Notes: generated by a model from the letters alone, not told the origin. Positions 51,012-60,481 are shown, counted from the first letter of the stretch. The stretch is 64,000 nt of DNA from Syntrophales bacterium (GCA_026416455.1 JAOAFE010000002.1:109942-173941); one strand, 5' to 3'. Numbers and translations are program-made.

Positions 51012-51772
51012 AGGTCATGAATGATTTCTCGGTGCTTTCTAATTTGATTAAAACCCTCCGATCACCGGAGGGATGTCCCTGGGATCGGACACAGAAAAAG
51101 GCTGATCTGGGAAAGTATCTCATAAACGAGGCCTATGAGGTATTAGATGCCATCGAGTCAGGGGACAAGATCGCCTTCCGGGAGGAATTGGGGGATTTGC
51201 TGTTTCAGATCGTTTTTCTGGCCGTCTTGGCCGAAGAGGAGGGGGAGTTTACGTTGGAGGAAGTGGTATCTCATGTGAAAGAAAAAATGGTACGTCGCCA
51301 TCCGCACGTGTTTGGGGAAAGGGCGGTGGATGGGGTAGAGGAGGTAAAGAAGAATTGGGAACTAATGAAGATGGAGGAAGGAAAATCGCTGCTTAACGGG
51401 ACACCGCGGTCCCTGCCCGCCCTGAGACGGGCTCAGGAAATCACCAAAAGGGCAGCTCGGGTGGGCTTTGATTGGCCACAGATAGAAGGGTTGTGGAAAA
51501 AGATGGACGAGGAACTCGATGAACTGAAACAGGCTTTGGCAGCGCAAGACAAAGATAAAGTCGAGTTGGAGGTGGGCGATCTTCTTTTCACCTGCGTTAA
51601 CCTGGCCCGGTTTCTCCAAGTAGAAGCGGAAGAGGCTTTACGAAATACAACCGATCGTTTTGTTGAGCGCTTTTCTTACATTGAAGATAGGTTGAAGGCC
51701 AAAGGGAAAAAGCTGGAAGAGGCGACGTTAGAAGAAATGGACGCCCTGTGGGAGGAGGCAAAAGGCAAGTGA
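51008..51772 (+). CDS. mazG: Nucleoside triphosphate pyrophosphohydrolase
   Basis: LRSPEGCPWD, EELGDLL, RRHPHVF, GFDW, EVGDLLF. Confidence 0.95.
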   Translation: MKVMNDFSVLSNLIKTLRSPEGCPWDRTQKKADLGKYLINEAYEVLDAIESGDKIAFREELGDLLFQIVFLAVLAEEEGEFTLEEVVSHVKEKMVRRHPHVFGERAVDGVEEVKKNWELMKMEEGKSLLNGTPRSLPALRRAQEITKRAARVGFDWPQIEGLWKKMDEELDELKQALAAQDKDKVELEVGDLLFTCVNLARFLQVEAEEALRNTTDRFVERFSYIEDRLKAKGKKLEEATLEEMDALWEEAKGK

Positions 51773-53073
51773 TTTTTAGGGACGGGGAACCAGATATCCG
51801 TGTGGGTCTTGTTGAAGGAGAAAAGGAGATCGAAGGCTTCCTGGAGGGTCCATACGAGTTAGACGGTATTCTCGTAACCAATGTCCCCTTTAGAGTGGTG
51901 GTAGAGGGAGGAAGACTTGTCTTGACCGTAAAAGGAGAAGTTAAGGGTAAGAGCAAGCAATGGACCTGTACGCCTAAAAGCGATGTCTCGACTCTTTCCC
52001 TATCGGGTGTCACCATCGGACGCAAGTTTCACTGGGAAAGAACAGAAAAACAGCTTTTCCGCGGGACCGTAAGTTTTTTCTGGGACGAAGGGGCGCTAAT
52101 TGCCGTCAACCGGTTGCCCTTGGAACAGTATTTGGAGATCGTCGTTTCTTCTGAAATGAGTGACCGGGCGCCGGAGGAATTCTTGAAGGCCCACGCCGTG
52201 ATCGCACGATCATGGGCGGGACGCATTCTCTCGGCAGAAGCGGATGGATCCTCGATGGAGATGGTTCCAAGGGAAGGAGAATTCATCCGGTGGTATGATT
52301 GGACGGGACACGGCAACTTCGATGTCTGTGGGGATGATCATTGTCAACGTTATCAAGGAATCGGACGTATGAAAACGGGGAAGGCAGCTCAGGCGGTCAG
52401 AGATACGAGAGGCCTCTTTCTCATTTTTGCGGGAAAGATCTGCGATGCGCGATATCATAAGGCCTGTGGAGGGAGAACGGAACTTTTTTCAAGCGCCTGG
52501 GATGCCCGAGAGGTGCCGTATATCAAGTCTGTCTCCTGTGGAGAGAGGGATTTTTCGGCCATTGGTAATGAAAGGGAGGCAGAAGATTGGATCCGGTCAC
52601 ATCCACCCGCCTTTTGCGGCGTCAAGGAAAAAGGCATATTGGAAAGCATCCTCAATGAATATGACCGGGAGACGGAGGATTTTTTCCGCTGGGAAGTGAC
52701 GTACAGCAGAGAAGAGCTCACGGCTATGGTAAAGGAAAAGTCGGGGATAGATTTCGGTCGCATCGAAGCCCTGCTCCCCTTAGCTCGGGGACCATCGGGT
52801 AGGATTTATCGCTTGGAGATTAGAGGAAGTAGACGCAATGTTATTGTGGGGAAGGAGTTGGAAATCAGACGCTGGCTTTCTCCTACGCATCTTTTGAGCA
52901 GTGCCTTTATTGTGAAGGTAGCAGGTGATACCTTTCGGATAAAAGGGGCGGGTTGGGGACATGGGGTAGGTCTCTGTCAGATTGGAGCGGCAGTTATGGC
53001 TTCACTGGATTGGGATTTTACGCGAATTCTCTCTCACTATTTCCCCTCTACTTCTCTTTACCGCCTTTACTAA
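51769..53073 (+). CDS. SpoIID/LytB-domain lytic transglycosylase-like protein
   Basis: LEQYL...SEM (catalytic Glu), LKAHAVIARS, H-x4-VC-x3-HCQRYQG, GWGHGVGLCQIGA, ILSHYF; GTG start overlaps the mazG stop. Confidence 0.9.
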   Translation: MIFRDGEPDIRVGLVEGEKEIEGFLEGPYELDGILVTNVPFRVVVEGGRLVLTVKGEVKGKSKQWTCTPKSDVSTLSLSGVTIGRKFHWERTEKQLFRGTVSFFWDEGALIAVNRLPLEQYLEIVVSSEMSDRAPEEFLKAHAVIARSWAGRILSAEADGSSMEMVPREGEFIRWYDWTGHGNFDVCGDDHCQRYQGIGRMKTGKAAQAVRDTRGLFLIFAGKICDARYHKACGGRTELFSSAWDAREVPYIKSVSCGERDFSAIGNEREAEDWIRSHPPAFCGVKEKGILESILNEYDRETEDFFRWEVTYSREELTAMVKEKSGIDFGRIEALLPLARGPSGRIYRLEIRGSRRNVIVGKELEIRRWLSPTHLLSSAFIVKVAGDTFRIKGAGWGHGVGLCQIGAAVMASLDWDFTRILSHYFPSTSLYRLY

Positions 53074-53495
53074 AGATGGGGAGGAGGTTCGTTCCATTGA
53101 AGCCAGTAGAGGCCTAGTATTTTCATCGCTTCAGTAAACTCGATGAAATTAACTGGCTTACAGACATAGCCGTTGGCTCCGCGACGATAAGCTTCTTTTC
53201 GATCCCTATCTTCCCGCGATGAAGAAAGGACAACGACGACAAGCATCTGTGTTCGCTCTTGAGACCTTATTTTTTCAAGGAGCTCAAAACCGTCAATCCG
53301 AGGTAGTTTCAGGTCAAGGAGAACAAGAACGGGGAGTCTATTTTCTGGGTTAAATAGGTAATCCATGGCTTCGACTCCATCTTGGGCTACGACAAAATCA
53401 TAAGACCATCCGTTTTTTCGAAAGGCACGAATCGTCAAATCTACATCATCAGGATTGTCTTCCACGAGTAATATAGGATTTCCTTTTCTCGTCAC
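53070..53495 (-). CDS. Single-domain response regulator (Rcp1-like)
   Basis: LLVEDNPDD, LLDLKLPRIDG, GANGYVCKP, LGLYWL. Confidence 0.93.
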   Translation of the reverse strand: MTRKGNPILLVEDNPDDVDLTIRAFRKNGWSYDFVVAQDGVEAMDYLFNPENRLPVLVLLDLKLPRIDGFELLEKIRSQERTQMLVVVVLSSSREDRDRKEAYRRGANGYVCKPVNFIEFTEAMKILGLYWLQWNEPPPHL

Positions 53496-58144: not shown

Positions 58145-59580
58145 AGGTCTTTGTCGTTTTAGTGGGCATATCGAATAGAGAAGAGATCTCCTCTTTCCTT
58201 CCCCTCTTCGGGCACCCTCAAGTGTCCGGTGGAGTTGTCATAACTCCATTGGCTGTTGATTTCGGCGGAACTATAGCTGGCCTCGTAACGGATAAGGTAG
58301 AAAGCAGCGACACAATTGCCCAATTGGCAGACCAGGCAAAGGGAGATTACATCCTGTGGGTGGATGCGAAAAAGAGCTTACACGTTTTCCCAGAAGCCCT
58401 GGAGCGCAGTCTTTCGGTCGCCCAAGATTGTGGGGCAAGTATCGTCTATGCAGATTATGAGGAACGTGCTCTAACGGACTACGAGCTGGGAAGCGTAAGG
58501 GATAATTTCGATTTAGGCCCTTTTCTTTTTTTGCATCGAGAACGGTTGAAAGACATTTTGGCTAGGGAGAGGCGTGGCTATCGTTTGGCTGGACTTTACG
58601 ACGCCCGCCTTAAATTGTCGCGCCTGGGACCAATCGTCCACCTGCGAGAGCCTCTCGGGCAAGAAAGGTCGGCAAAGGATTATGATAAGGAAAAGTTTTC
58701 TTACCTGGAGGCGACCAATGAAGCTTATCAACGGGAACTGGAGCATGCTTTCACCGAGCATTTAAAAGCCATCGGGGCGTATTTAGCCCCCGAGTATGAG
58801 CCCTTGCCTTACGACCATGATCTCTATCCCGTAGAGGCAAGCATTATAATTCCCGTAAAAAACCGTGCTTCCACCATAGGAGATGCGCTAAGGAGTGCCC
58901 TTAGTCAGAAGGCGAGCTTTCCCTTCAATATCATAGTTGTGGACAATCATTCGACCGATGGAACCAGTCAGATCCTCGATGAGCAAGCCCACAAAAATAG
59001 TAATCTTATAGTCCTAAGGCCGGAAAGGACGGATCTCAATATTGGCGGCTGCTGGAACTTAGCTGTCCGCTCACCACATTGTGGGAGATGGGCTGTACAG
59101 CTTGATTCGGATGACCTTTACGCTCACGAGGGGGTGCTTTCGATGATCGTTCATATGCTCTCCGGCGGGGATTATGCCATGGTTATTGGTTCATATACCT
59201 TAGTGGATATGAAAGGCCGGATCCTGCCTCCTGGCATAATTACCCATCGGGAATGGACGGAAGAAAATGGGCGGAATAACGCTTTGCGGGTGGAGGGTTT
59301 TGGTGCTCCCCGCGCCTTCCGCACGCAGATATTAAGAAATATGCCCTTTCCCAACGTAAGTTACGGGGAAGATTATGCCGTAGCGTTGAGGATTTCTCGT
59401 TTTTACCGGATAGGTCGGATCTTCGAAAGCATTTACTTTTGTCGGCGATGGGAAGGAAATTCCGATGCCCGTCTTACTCCGGAGAGGGTAAATGAATTCA
59501 ACGCCTACAAAGATCGAATTCGTACGATAGAGATCATGGCCCGCCAGCGCCTGAACGAGAGGAGACGTGAAAGGAATTAA
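58141..59580 (+). CDS. Family 2 glycosyltransferase with an extra N-terminal GT-like domain
   Basis: [33 protein letters not shown]-terminal IVYADY...[10 protein letters not shown]. Confidence 0.9.
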
Positions 59581-60481
59581 TCCAATCCTGGCAGAATTTT
59601 TCGATCGACAGAGGAGAACATGGTCTGAATTCAACGGGGCCTGCCAAGCCCTAGGTGGGGCCCAGTCAAAGAGAATAGAGTTCGAGGGCGGTTATTTTCT
59701 AGTGCAACTAAACCCCCAAAGGCGGGTCAATGTAGAAGTCACACCTGATGACACCCCATGCCTTCTTTGTGAAGAAAATCTTCCATTGGAGCAGGAGAGA
59801 ATGCCTTTGGGTGAATCCCTCTATCTCTTGTGCAATCCCCGACCGATCTTCCCCTATCATTTCACTTTGGCATCTCGCCAACATGAAAAGCAGGCAATAG
59901 AAGGTCGCGAAAAACTGTTATTAGATGTGGCAAAAGAATTGGGGCCGGGCGTGGCCTTATTTTATAACGGTCCCCATTCAGGAGCCTCTATTCCCTTTCA
60001 TTTCCACTTCCAGGCCGTGCCCTTTTCTAATCTCCCTATTCATGAGGATCGTCGATGGTTGAAATGGGCAGATCTTTCGGTCGTCGCCTTAGTGAATCAC
60101 CAGATACGAAGCTACTTCTTCCTGCGAGGGACAGATAGAGATGCCTTAATCGAAAACGTAAGGCGCTTTATGATGGCGTGGAAAAAGGTCTCGGCCAGTG
60201 AAGATGAACCCATGGTAAATATCATAGTAGCCTTCGAAGATGGGTTGTGGCTCGTTTATATCTTTCCCCGTCGGGGTCATCGGCCGAAAAGATTCTTCGC
60301 AAGCGAAGGAGAGAAGATTATCGTAACACCGGGAGCGGTAGAGATGGGAGGAGTGATAGTGACGGTGCGGGAAAGGGATTTTCTTGCTTTGAATGAAAGA
60401 ATATTACAGGAAATCATGAGCGATGTCTGTGTTGCCCCTGAAGTGCTCGATGATATTGTGAGGCAATGTAAGTGTTTATAA
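59567..60481 (+). CDS. DUF4922 protein (HIT/GalT-like HxHxQ nucleotidyl phosphorylase fold)
   Basis: [58 protein letters not shown]. Confidence 0.82.

Follow-up and report, generated by a model that had tools for sequence, protein, structure and literature searches.

SpoIID-like, GT2 and DUF4922 genes that travel with ampG: a candidate substitute for NagZ in peptidoglycan recycling

What becomes of the sugars in imported cell wall fragments when a bacterium has the importer and none of the enzymes that ordinarily follow it? The question is raised by a 64,000-nucleotide (nt) stretch of DNA from a Syntrophales bacterium (GCA_026416455.1, JAOAFE010000002.1:109942-173941), called here the window; coordinates are those of the whole stretch, and genes lie on the plus strand unless marked otherwise. 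The genome it comes from (assembly 95.8% complete) encodes the muropeptide permease AmpG on another contig (C43:2808-4058; 452 bits to TIGR00901, cut-off 350) and an AmiA-like amidase (PF07313, 148 bits). Searches of the same genome gave no match to AnmK, to glycoside hydrolase family 3 (GH3, the NagZ family) or to Amidase_2/AmpD, and neither MurQ nor Mpl above cut-off; tblastn with representatives from other loci gave no NamZ and no MurK-like gene. Here, then, is an AmpG permease without the textbook downstream enzymes AnmK, NagZ, AmpD, and MurQ. The window holds genes for a SpoIID-like protein, a MurU-like transferase, an AmgK-like kinase, a GT2 glycosyltransferase, and a DUF4922 protein. 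I shall argue that these likely constitute, with AmpG, a module for recycling muropeptide sugars that makes NagZ unnecessary.

The SpoIID/LytB-family gene (51748-53073, GTG start) is the last of a string of overlapping genes on one strand (46858-53073: NlpC/P60, TruA, ABHD18, DUF362/4Fe-4S, MazG, SpoIID). Beyond an inverted two-component pair begins a run of five genes, encoding the NTP_transferase (a sugar-1-phosphate nucleotidylyltransferase, 55736-56446, PF00483), the kinase (56453-57454, PF01636), a lipoprotein (57479-58144), the GT2 (58141-59580), and the DUF4922 protein (59567-60481), with gaps of 6 and 24 nt followed by overlaps of 4 and 14 nt. A preliminary description of the locus had listed this gene set with the same gaps and overlaps, and open reading frame calls and domain scans agree with it throughout. 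Its SpoIID gene is real, although the start it gave, 51769, falls seven codons inside the GTG start; no signal peptide is predicted from either. It was right also to place that gene upstream on the same strand behind the inverted pair, but since the gene closes a separate same-strand string, it is not on the transcript of the five-gene operon in this genome. Scans of the region for promoter and terminator patterns gave no signal above shuffled sequence. That the linkage goes beyond chance follows from its conservation in other genomes, not from the window alone.

Consider first which genomes carry these genes. The closest homologs come from Syntrophales. In 251 genomes drawn evenly from the window's phylum, Thermodesulfobacteriota, the GT2 occurs in 31, spread over 10 families. 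An ortholog of the SpoIID-like protein (E<=1e-97) occurs in 33, namely all 31 of the GT2-positive genomes and two more (G109 and G203), and DUF4922 occurs in 25, every one of them GT2-positive. AmpG (a family match at E<=1e-30, which defines AmpG-positive here) is found in 142 of the 251 genomes: 29 of the 31 with GT2 versus 113 of the 220 others. GH3 is found in 172, with just the reverse bias: 3 of the 31 with GT2 (G074, G152, and G204) versus 169 of the 220 others. When attention is confined to the 142 AmpG-positive genomes, 109 have GH3 only, 26 have GT2 only, three have both, and four have neither (G056, 82% complete; G064, 95%; G129 and G151, both 97%). Among the AmpG-positive genomes of this phylum, the GT2 module and GH3/NagZ are almost mutually exclusive. 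This either/or relationship is the new observation presented here.

The genes of the module also keep company with one another and with ampG. One genome of the sample (G210) has SpoIID, AmpG, transferase, kinase, GT2, and DUF4922 contiguous on one strand, another (G251) carries a variant of this operon, and a third (G156) has the same order minus DUF4922. In a member of the same family (G116), SpoIID is followed by an inverted GAF-adenylate cyclase gene and then by transferase, kinase, GT2, and DUF4922. More broadly, the SpoIID-like and kinase genes are no more than 5 kb apart, on one strand, in 21 of the 31 GT2-positive genomes; in eight of these the gap measures about 0.75-0.8 kb, which is the length of the transferase gene. 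In 12 of the 31, the SpoIID-like gene and ampG are separated by 85-297 nt, in 11 the kinase is about 0.8-1.2 kb from ampG, and GT2 adjoins DUF4922 in 24 of the 25 sample genomes that have the latter. The kinase-transferase pair is tied to muropeptide uptake by the two genomes (G210 and G156) in which ampG, transferase, and kinase are contiguous. The preliminary description had surmised that two modules, an AmgK-MurU pair and a set of GT2, DUF4922, and LytB genes, were joined in the window; the relatives hold both in one operon with ampG.

Some variation among genomes deserves mention. A second copy of GT2-DUF4922 in one genome (G047:C1:320323-322614) has its GT2 divided between two reading frames and may be a duplicate in decay. 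Smithella-type genomes (loci L010, L011, L016, L038, and L063; genomes G082, G180, and G240) have a GT2-DUF4922 fusion of about 800-866 amino acids (aa) after leuS-lptE, with SpoIID, ampG, transferase, and kinase about 5-10 kb off. The AmgK-like kinase family itself is widespread, single-copy in 172 of the 251 genomes. A close clade of it (E<=1e-66) is GT2-positive in 20 of its 21 genomes, but these are kindred genomes and the kinase is single-copy, so I ascribe the match to phylogeny and do not count it as independent evidence.

Does the association extend beyond the phylum? When 185,579 species genomes were scanned by pattern for DUF4922, 598 places were confirmed. The best 80 of these are the loci used here; they come from Bacteroidota, Ignavibacteriota, Acidobacteriota, Thermodesulfobacteriota, and others. 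Open reading frames within 7 kb were clustered, and one representative of each cluster was scanned against Pfam. A homolog of the window's GT2 (E 1e-100 to 1e-139) stands beside DUF4922 in 72 of the 80 loci, and in five (L010, L011, L016, L038, and L063) the two are a single open reading frame of about 800 aa. The eight loci without GT2 comprise four that are cut on that side, two with room and no GT2 (L028 and L036), and two that carry GT4. Within 7 kb, the loci contain a SpoIID-like gene (47/80), an AmpG-type major facilitator superfamily gene (34/80; best NCBIfam family of the representative AmpG, 178 bits, under the cut-off of 350), a BadF/BcrAD-type ATPase gene resembling murK (25/80), Golvesin_C (21/80), NamZ (16/80), a MurQ-like SIS gene (16/80), an AmiA-like amidase (12/80), an M15 peptidase (10/80), GH3 (7/80), and the AmgK-like kinase (5/80). 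If only the 53 loci that extend 4 kb or more to each side are counted, GT2 is present in 50, the SpoIID-like gene in 38, and AmpG in 27. Ten genomes whose locus lacks SpoIID were searched whole, and seven have the ortholog elsewhere (E<=1e-102). In the two Ignavibacteriales loci with GT4 (PF00534; L044:8600-9900 and L056:8684-9922), that gene sits between the SpoIID-like and DUF4922 genes, in the place expected of GT2.

A cluster of GT2, DUF4922, LytB, and ampG in Bacteroidota, which the preliminary description had named, is real. That description had also named a want of conserved linkage between GT2/DUF4922 and recycling genes as the outcome that would tell against it, and the outcome was otherwise: AmpG, MurK-like, MurQ-like, NamZ, and amidase genes are linked to the pair across phyla. 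The SpoIID-like, MurU-like, AmgK-like, GT2, and DUF4922 genes travel with ampG across genomes.

What are the proteins capable of? The SpoIID-like protein exceeds the curated cut-offs of its families (PF08486, 76.8 bits versus 23; TIGR02669, 167.4 versus 83.3), and its top sequence match in the PDB is SpoIID 4rwr (E 1.5e-14), with VVSSEM aligned to VVASEM. An AlphaFold (AF2) model, with a predicted local distance difference test score (pLDDT) of 84.8, combines a lytic-transglycosylase fold with an N-terminal all-beta domain. A Foldseek search with the model returned at E<=0.001 only the SpoIID structures 5i1t and 4rwr (the former at E 2.4e-13, with a TM-score of 0.75 on the target). The family is unusually conserved (mean column identity of 56% across phyla), and 22 homologs share without exception E136, C194, H198, C199, C232, C240, C290, and GAGWGHGVG.CQIGAA. 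E136 aligns with the Glu of the SpoIID SEM segment, which I take, from the SpoIID literature, to be the catalytic residue. The extracytoplasmic location typical of sporulation SpoIID and of LytB is another matter. Neither the window protein nor its homologs from 47 loci have a signal peptide or transmembrane segment; in the homologs EPxxxVG starts a few residues after the first Met, and their 15-residue N-terminal windows all have a Kyte-Doolittle mean of 1.65 or less. What had been remarked of the window's protein, that it lacks an evident signal peptide, is true of the family.

The names MurU and AmgK, given outright in the preliminary description, should be read as likenesses. The transferase, at 236 aa, fits the minimal (about 230 aa) type of sugar-1-phosphate nucleotidylyltransferase. 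MurU 4y7t is its top PDB match by sequence (E 3.6e-15), with a UGPase close behind and then more MurU entries, and MurU (NF045761) is among its best NCBIfam families, at 105 bits where the cut-off is 250. The kinase has as its two top-scoring families the AmgK models NF045759 (84.8 bits, cut-off 550) and NF045698 (65.7 bits, cut-off 500), both well short of the equivalog level. Its nearest solved structure by sequence is an uncharacterised kinase, 3csv (E 3e-16), with HRDLQSQN and IDFQ aligned, and it displays the catalytic loop HxDxxxxN and the DFx metal site of the APH fold. It is single-copy in its own genome, 6 nt from the transferase.

The GT2 (PF00535, 79.3 bits versus a cut-off of 23.3) retains QLDSDD, with its DxD motif, YGEDY, and RRW without exception in 26 homologs. 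In its AF2 model (pLDDT 87.6), the C-terminal domain, residues of about 229-475, is a canonical GT-A domain (Z of 22-25 versus GT2 structures), and a second structural comparison covered only residues 221-475 well. Ahead of it lie about 225 conserved aa that make up the N-terminal domain. In the structural comparisons these residues align with nothing but the first GT-A domain of the K4 chondroitin polymerase. The N-terminal domain finds the C-terminal domain in hhalign only as a weak match (probability 20%), with a non-acidic residue at the DxD position. Over residues 1-474, only the K4CP chondroitin polymerase aligns, with a root-mean-square deviation of about 21 Å, a poor full-length superposition. 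The protein has one marginal hydrophobic window, which is a strand in the model, and no transmembrane segments.

The DUF4922 protein (PF16269, 120.6 bits versus 23.6) has two sets of residues invariant in 19 homologs: H145-x-H147-F-Q149 (HxHFQA) and a CxxC at C65..C68. The HxHxQ motif presumably marks the GalT branch of HIT enzymes. The profile of the family matches the yeast diadenosine tetraphosphate (Ap4A) phosphorylase Apa2 (4i5t, E 1.2e-5) with that motif aligned. According to the portions of PMC7041677 and PMC11047344 drawn on here, the animal GDP-glucose phosphorylase GDPGP1 and the plant GDP-L-galactose phosphorylases (VTC2/GGP) are DUF4922 proteins. The window's protein is, as judged by sequence, a homolog of HIT-type nucleotide-sugar phosphorylases or nucleotidyltransferases. 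The statement that its function is a blank does not stand, since GDP-hexose phosphorylases carry this domain and Ap4A phosphorylase can be aligned with it; the bacterial cluster to which the statement referred does exist. No export signal appears in any of the five proteins, SpoIID-like, transferase, kinase, GT2, or DUF4922, and all of them but GT2, with its marginal window, are free of hydrophobic segments. Two conclusions are firmly supported: that these enzymes of the cytoplasm and AmpG make up a single unit, and that NagZ can be dispensed with wherever the unit occurs in this phylum.

I propose that the unit replaces NagZ: working in the cytoplasm downstream of AmpG, it would salvage the sugars of imported wall fragments. 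I consider this somewhat probable. The route would run as follows. AmpG would bring in the disaccharide N-acetylglucosaminyl-(1,6-anhydro)-N-acetylmuramic acid, GlcNAc-(1,6-anhydro)MurNAc, and the AmiA-like amidase would strip the peptide. GT2 would then do the work of NagZ without hydrolysis, by reverse glycosyl transfer onto a nucleoside diphosphate (NDP), yielding NDP-GlcNAc. An inverting GT2 would form beta-linkages from alpha-NDP-sugars, and its reversal would free GlcNAc from GlcNAc-beta-1,4-(anh)MurNAc. DUF4922 would phosphorolyse the NDP-GlcNAc to GlcNAc-1-phosphate, regenerating NDP, so that the two enzymes together would amount to a disaccharide phosphorylase that saves the energy of the bond. 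The SpoIID-like enzyme, using the chemistry of a lytic transglycosylase in reverse, would open the 1,6-anhydro ring to give MurNAc, which the AmgK-like kinase and MurU-like transferase would convert to UDP-MurNAc.

Three things fit the part of this scheme assigned to GT2 and DUF4922: the fusions of the two genes, the NDP and NDP-sugar intermediates they would share, and the pattern of NagZ. The gene of the SpoIID-like protein, the proposed ring opener, sits between ampG and the transferase-kinase pair, and no other part has a chemistry that touches the 1,6-anhydro bond; ring opening would give the free MurNAc needed by an anomeric kinase. It is nonetheless doubtful that the chemistry of the three middle steps, those of GT2, DUF4922, and the SpoIID-like enzyme, is right as written. 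The boldest version, a nearly ATP-free and hydrolysis-free conversion of GlcNAc-anhMurNAc that would yield sugar-1-phosphates or UDP-sugars and need neither NagZ nor AnmK nor MupP, the energy of the anhydro bond being spent by a homolog of lytic transglycosylases, must be called unlikely.

Several facts pull against the proposal. To move a sugar backwards from a beta-1,4 glycoside onto NDP is an uphill reaction thermodynamically, and the direction I give to the GT2 reaction is pure conjecture. The N-terminal domain of GT2 lacks the acidic DxD and its fold is weakly assigned. The AmgK and MurU matches are far under the NCBIfam equivalog cut-offs, and the transferase scores slightly higher with the model for mannose-1-phosphate guanylyltransferase (110 bits, likewise below its own cut-off) than with that for MurU. 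A single-protein query did not find DUF4922 in 6 of the 31 GT2-positive genomes (G053, G085, G090, G119, G156, and G186), so the NDP cycle is not obligatory and the second of its steps is optional. Three of the ten genomes searched whole depart from the rule for the SpoIID-like ortholog, which is absent from two (G256 and G260) and divergent in the third (G257). GH3 and the module can even share an operon, as in four loci of Ignavibacteria type (L015, L043, L047, and L050, with GH3 of 990-1270 aa), and in another (L023), a NagZ-sized GH3 follows DUF4922, in the usual position of the SpoIID-like gene. The nominal Fisher p for the either/or pattern is tiny and overstates independence, because the 31 GT2-positive genomes represent 10 families.

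Nor can the module be said to replace AnmK specifically: an AnmK match is found in 1 of the 31 GT2-positive genomes and in 28 of the 220 others (p 0.22), no significant complementarity. AnmK occurs in just 17 of the 142 AmpG-positive genomes, so its absence is not special to the module. The simple rule that AmpG needs either AnmK or the module fails as well, for 97 of those 142 genomes have neither. How 1,6-anhydro-MurNAc is handled in most of the phylum is unexplained, whether or not the GT2 module is present.

An opposite view is that the pathway runs forwards: the kinase and transferase activate salvaged MurNAc or GlcNAc, by phosphorylation and then nucleotide transfer, for GT2, which builds a cytoplasmic glycoside or oligosaccharide (a rebuilt disaccharide, a signal, or a store), while DUF4922 proofreads or buffers NDP-sugars, as GDPGP1 does with GDP-glucose, and what GT2 makes is trimmed or cyclised by the SpoIID-like enzyme. 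Leloir GT2 enzymes usually do run forwards, the catalytic motifs of this one are intact, and its nearest full-length structural match, K4CP, is a bifunctional polymerase. The order kinase, transferase, GT2 would suit a supply line, relatives of DUF4922 act on NDP-hexoses, and the loss of DUF4922 from 6 of the 31 genomes is easily explained if it is a mere proofreader. This view leaves unexplained, however, why NagZ is missing from 28 of the 31 GT2-positive genomes and present in 109 of the 113 other AmpG-positive ones. In the 80 loci there is no conserved gene nearby for an acceptor, flippase, lipid carrier, or export, and most phyla have the GT2 pair without an adjoining kinase and transferase (the kinase in 5 of the 80 loci). 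A cytoplasmic polymer cut by a cytoplasmic lytic transglycosylase would moreover be a futile cycle. I judge forward biosynthesis rather unlikely. Both directions had been foreseen in the preliminary description, and of the two, reverse cleavage of recycled disaccharide is favoured, a new glycoconjugate less so, given the phyletic complementarity with NagZ.

The motif of DUF4922 invites a different thought, that the protein is a uridylyltransferase of the GalT type, exchanging UDP-MurNAc and GlcNAc-1-phosphate for MurNAc-1-phosphate and UDP-GlcNAc as in the Leloir pathway. One kinase and one MurU would then serve both sugars, with GT2 and the SpoIID-like enzyme processing the disaccharide separately. 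HxHxQ is there to be seen, presumably shared with the GalT branch; in Pseudomonas putida, AmgK phosphorylates both MurNAc and GlcNAc and MurU is specific for MurNAc-1-phosphate; and in Syntrophales-type genomes DUF4922 is in one operon with kinase and transferase. Yet the eukaryotic DUF4922 proteins, like the one relative of solved structure that sequence comparison brought up, are phosphorylases and do not catalyse an exchange, the gene adjoins GT2 (in 24 of 25 sample genomes, with five fusions in 80 loci) rather than the kinase or transferase, and most DUF4922 loci have no AmgK or MurU adjoining. The exchange is very unlikely. Might there be no common pathway at all? SpoIID/LytB would be an envelope enzyme or amidase enhancer, and another NDP-sugar, of mannose or heptose type, would feed a GT2 that makes a surface glycan, as GT2 enzymes often do. 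The sub-threshold scores of kinase and transferase, with the mannose-1-phosphate guanylyltransferase model slightly ahead of MurU, leave room for this, as does the window's SpoIID gene on its own transcript behind the inverted pair. Against it, none of the SpoIID-like proteins in 47 loci has a signal peptide, the SpoIID-like gene is found in 31 of 31 GT2-positive genomes and GT2 in 31 of the 33 with SpoIID-like, ampG lies inside the relatives' operons, recycling genes are linked in five phyla, and the neighbourhood contains no genes for exporting polysaccharide and no polymerase genes. An incidental neighbourhood of module and recycling genes is nearly excluded, and separate pathways are extremely improbable.

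Not every gene at this locus is a conserved part of the module. The lipoprotein (signal peptide, Cys22), which had been counted as part of the system, matches no Pfam or NCBIfam family and has no counterpart in the 80 DUF4922 loci or in four further ones (L084-L087). Its nearest Atlas clusters are unnamed lipoproteins of Thermodesulfobacteriota. I considered whether it might be LptE, but it does not resemble the LptE encoded next to the GT2-DUF4922 fusion of one locus (L016) and finds nothing significant in Pfam. The inverted pair consists of a receiver-only response regulator (53070-53495, minus strand, PF00072) and a PAS sensor histidine kinase (53492-55666, minus strand; HisKA, HATPase_c, PAS) with two transmembrane segments (windows at residues 13-39 and 301-331), divergent from the five-gene operon across a 69-nt spacer. 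In relatives, the slot between the SpoIID-like and transferase genes is occupied by a GAF-adenylate cyclase gene or, in other families, by ampG. As the relatives' operons (G210, G156, and G116) show, the lipoprotein and the two-component pair are lineage-specific insertions into a conserved unit, from which ampG has moved to a different contig in the window's genome, and the response regulator may be a local regulator acquired in this way. An inverted signalling gene has come to occupy the same slot in two related genomes, regulator and PAS kinase in the window and the cyclase (L085:13743-16409) in the other (G116). Two neighbours remain. The NlpC/P60 protein of the upstream string, which is hydrophobic at its N-terminus and contains the domains SH3b and N_NLPC_P60, may be a further enzyme for cell wall peptides tied to the module. 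A branched-chain amino-acid-type ATP-binding cassette transporter (two permeases and a binding protein, 60526-63803) follows the operon after 44 nt on the same strand and has no link to the module in other loci.

Part of this picture has been in print without a function. The relevant portion of PMC5388701 describes a co-transcribed ampG operon in Tannerella forsythia (Tanf_08345-08370) that encodes a xanthan lyase(-like) protein, gtf, gtf, lytB, ampG, and ybbC/namZ1. The section of a preprint that concerns it (bioRxiv 10.1101/2021.12.02.470905) states that the functions of the gtf genes are unknown and calls LytB a putative lytic transglycosylase. From gene order alone, the second gtf would be the DUF4922 gene. 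In Bacteroidota, a protein of about 1000 aa with Golvesin_C precedes GT2 on the same strand (21 of the 80 loci, e.g. L072:3493-6591) and is probably the xanthan lyase of the Tannerella operon. Growth of T. forsythia on GlcNAc-anhMurNAc requires AmpG, and no AnmK is predicted for it, according to the passages of PMC7670621 that treat this organism. I found no published function for the trio of GT2, DUF4922, and SpoIID-like proteins in open-access papers and bioRxiv; subscription papers could hold one. The window thus offers a variant of peptidoglycan recycling that is still uncharacterised and whose counterpart in Tannerella, though published, is unexplained.

Peptidoglycan recycling is known mainly from gammaproteobacteria. 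The core described here, GT2, DUF4922, and a signal-less SpoIID-like protein, all cytoplasmic, has ampG as a neighbour in five phyla or more, among them Bacteroidota that abound in the gut and mouth, and the nearly perfect either/or relationship with NagZ in AmpG-positive Thermodesulfobacteriota gives that core a concrete, testable job. Recycling intermediates govern beta-lactamase induction and immune signalling, and an alternative route of processing therefore matters beyond metabolism. If the chemistry that saves the bond is right, it would be a new enzymatic logic: never before would a glycosyltransferase and an NDP-sugar phosphorylase have been paired physiologically to act as a glycoside phosphorylase, nor the SpoIID fold have had a role in the cytoplasm. 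It would also explain the use of anhydro-muropeptides by Tannerella and many gut Bacteroidota. It bears in any case on a question open in print, as the cited part of PMC7670621 has it, of how T. forsythia uses GlcNAc-anhMurNAc without AnmK.

How does the module compare with what is known? Like the canonical AmpG-NagZ-AmpD-AnmK route of E. coli type, it starts from a permease of the AmpG family and should handle the same cargo. Unlike that route, it is found in a genome without GH3, Amidase_2, or AnmK matches and with no MurQ above cut-off, and its likeness to NagZ is one of function, drawn from complementary distributions, not of homology. The Pseudomonas AmgK-MurU shortcut, in which MurNAc is converted to MurNAc-1-phosphate and then UDP-MurNAc (so described in the pertinent parts of PMC7670621 and PMC8054146), resembles it in the adjacency of an APH-type kinase and a small nucleotidyltransferase. 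The window's pair is embedded among SpoIID-like, GT2, and DUF4922 genes, however, none of which has a part in the Pseudomonas route, and the window's genome gave no match to AnmK, from which that route receives its MurNAc. The Tannerella order gtf-gtf-lytB-ampG-namZ matches the GT2-DUF4922-SpoIID-AmpG-NamZ of many Bacteroidota loci, whereas the window's version lacks namZ, murK, and murQ, has the amgK- and murU-like genes inside, and leaves ampG to another contig.

The individual proteins show the same mixture of the familiar and the displaced. With the SpoIID lytic transglycosylases of sporulation (4rwr, 5i1t, 5txu) the SpoIID-like protein shares fold and conserved active-site segments, but it has no membrane anchor or signal peptide, it has in addition an insert and, at the N-terminus, a beta domain of some 110 aa, and its gene context is cytoplasmic sugar metabolism where theirs is engulfment. 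The best matches of GT2, in sequence and in full-length structure, are the two-domain polymerases, E. coli K4 chondroitin polymerase and Pasteurella multocida heparosan synthase 2, both soluble and without transmembrane segments, as it is. Those have two GT-A domains; the N-terminal domain of the window's GT2 lacks the acidic DxD and is weakly GT-A-like, and there is no sign of polymer synthesis. VTC2/GGP and GDPGP1 share with the last protein of the operon its DUF4922 domain, and Apa2 shares the aligned HxHxQ. From all of these the bacterial DUF4922 proteins differ in being shorter, in conserving a CxxC, and in being fused or adjacent to a GT2.

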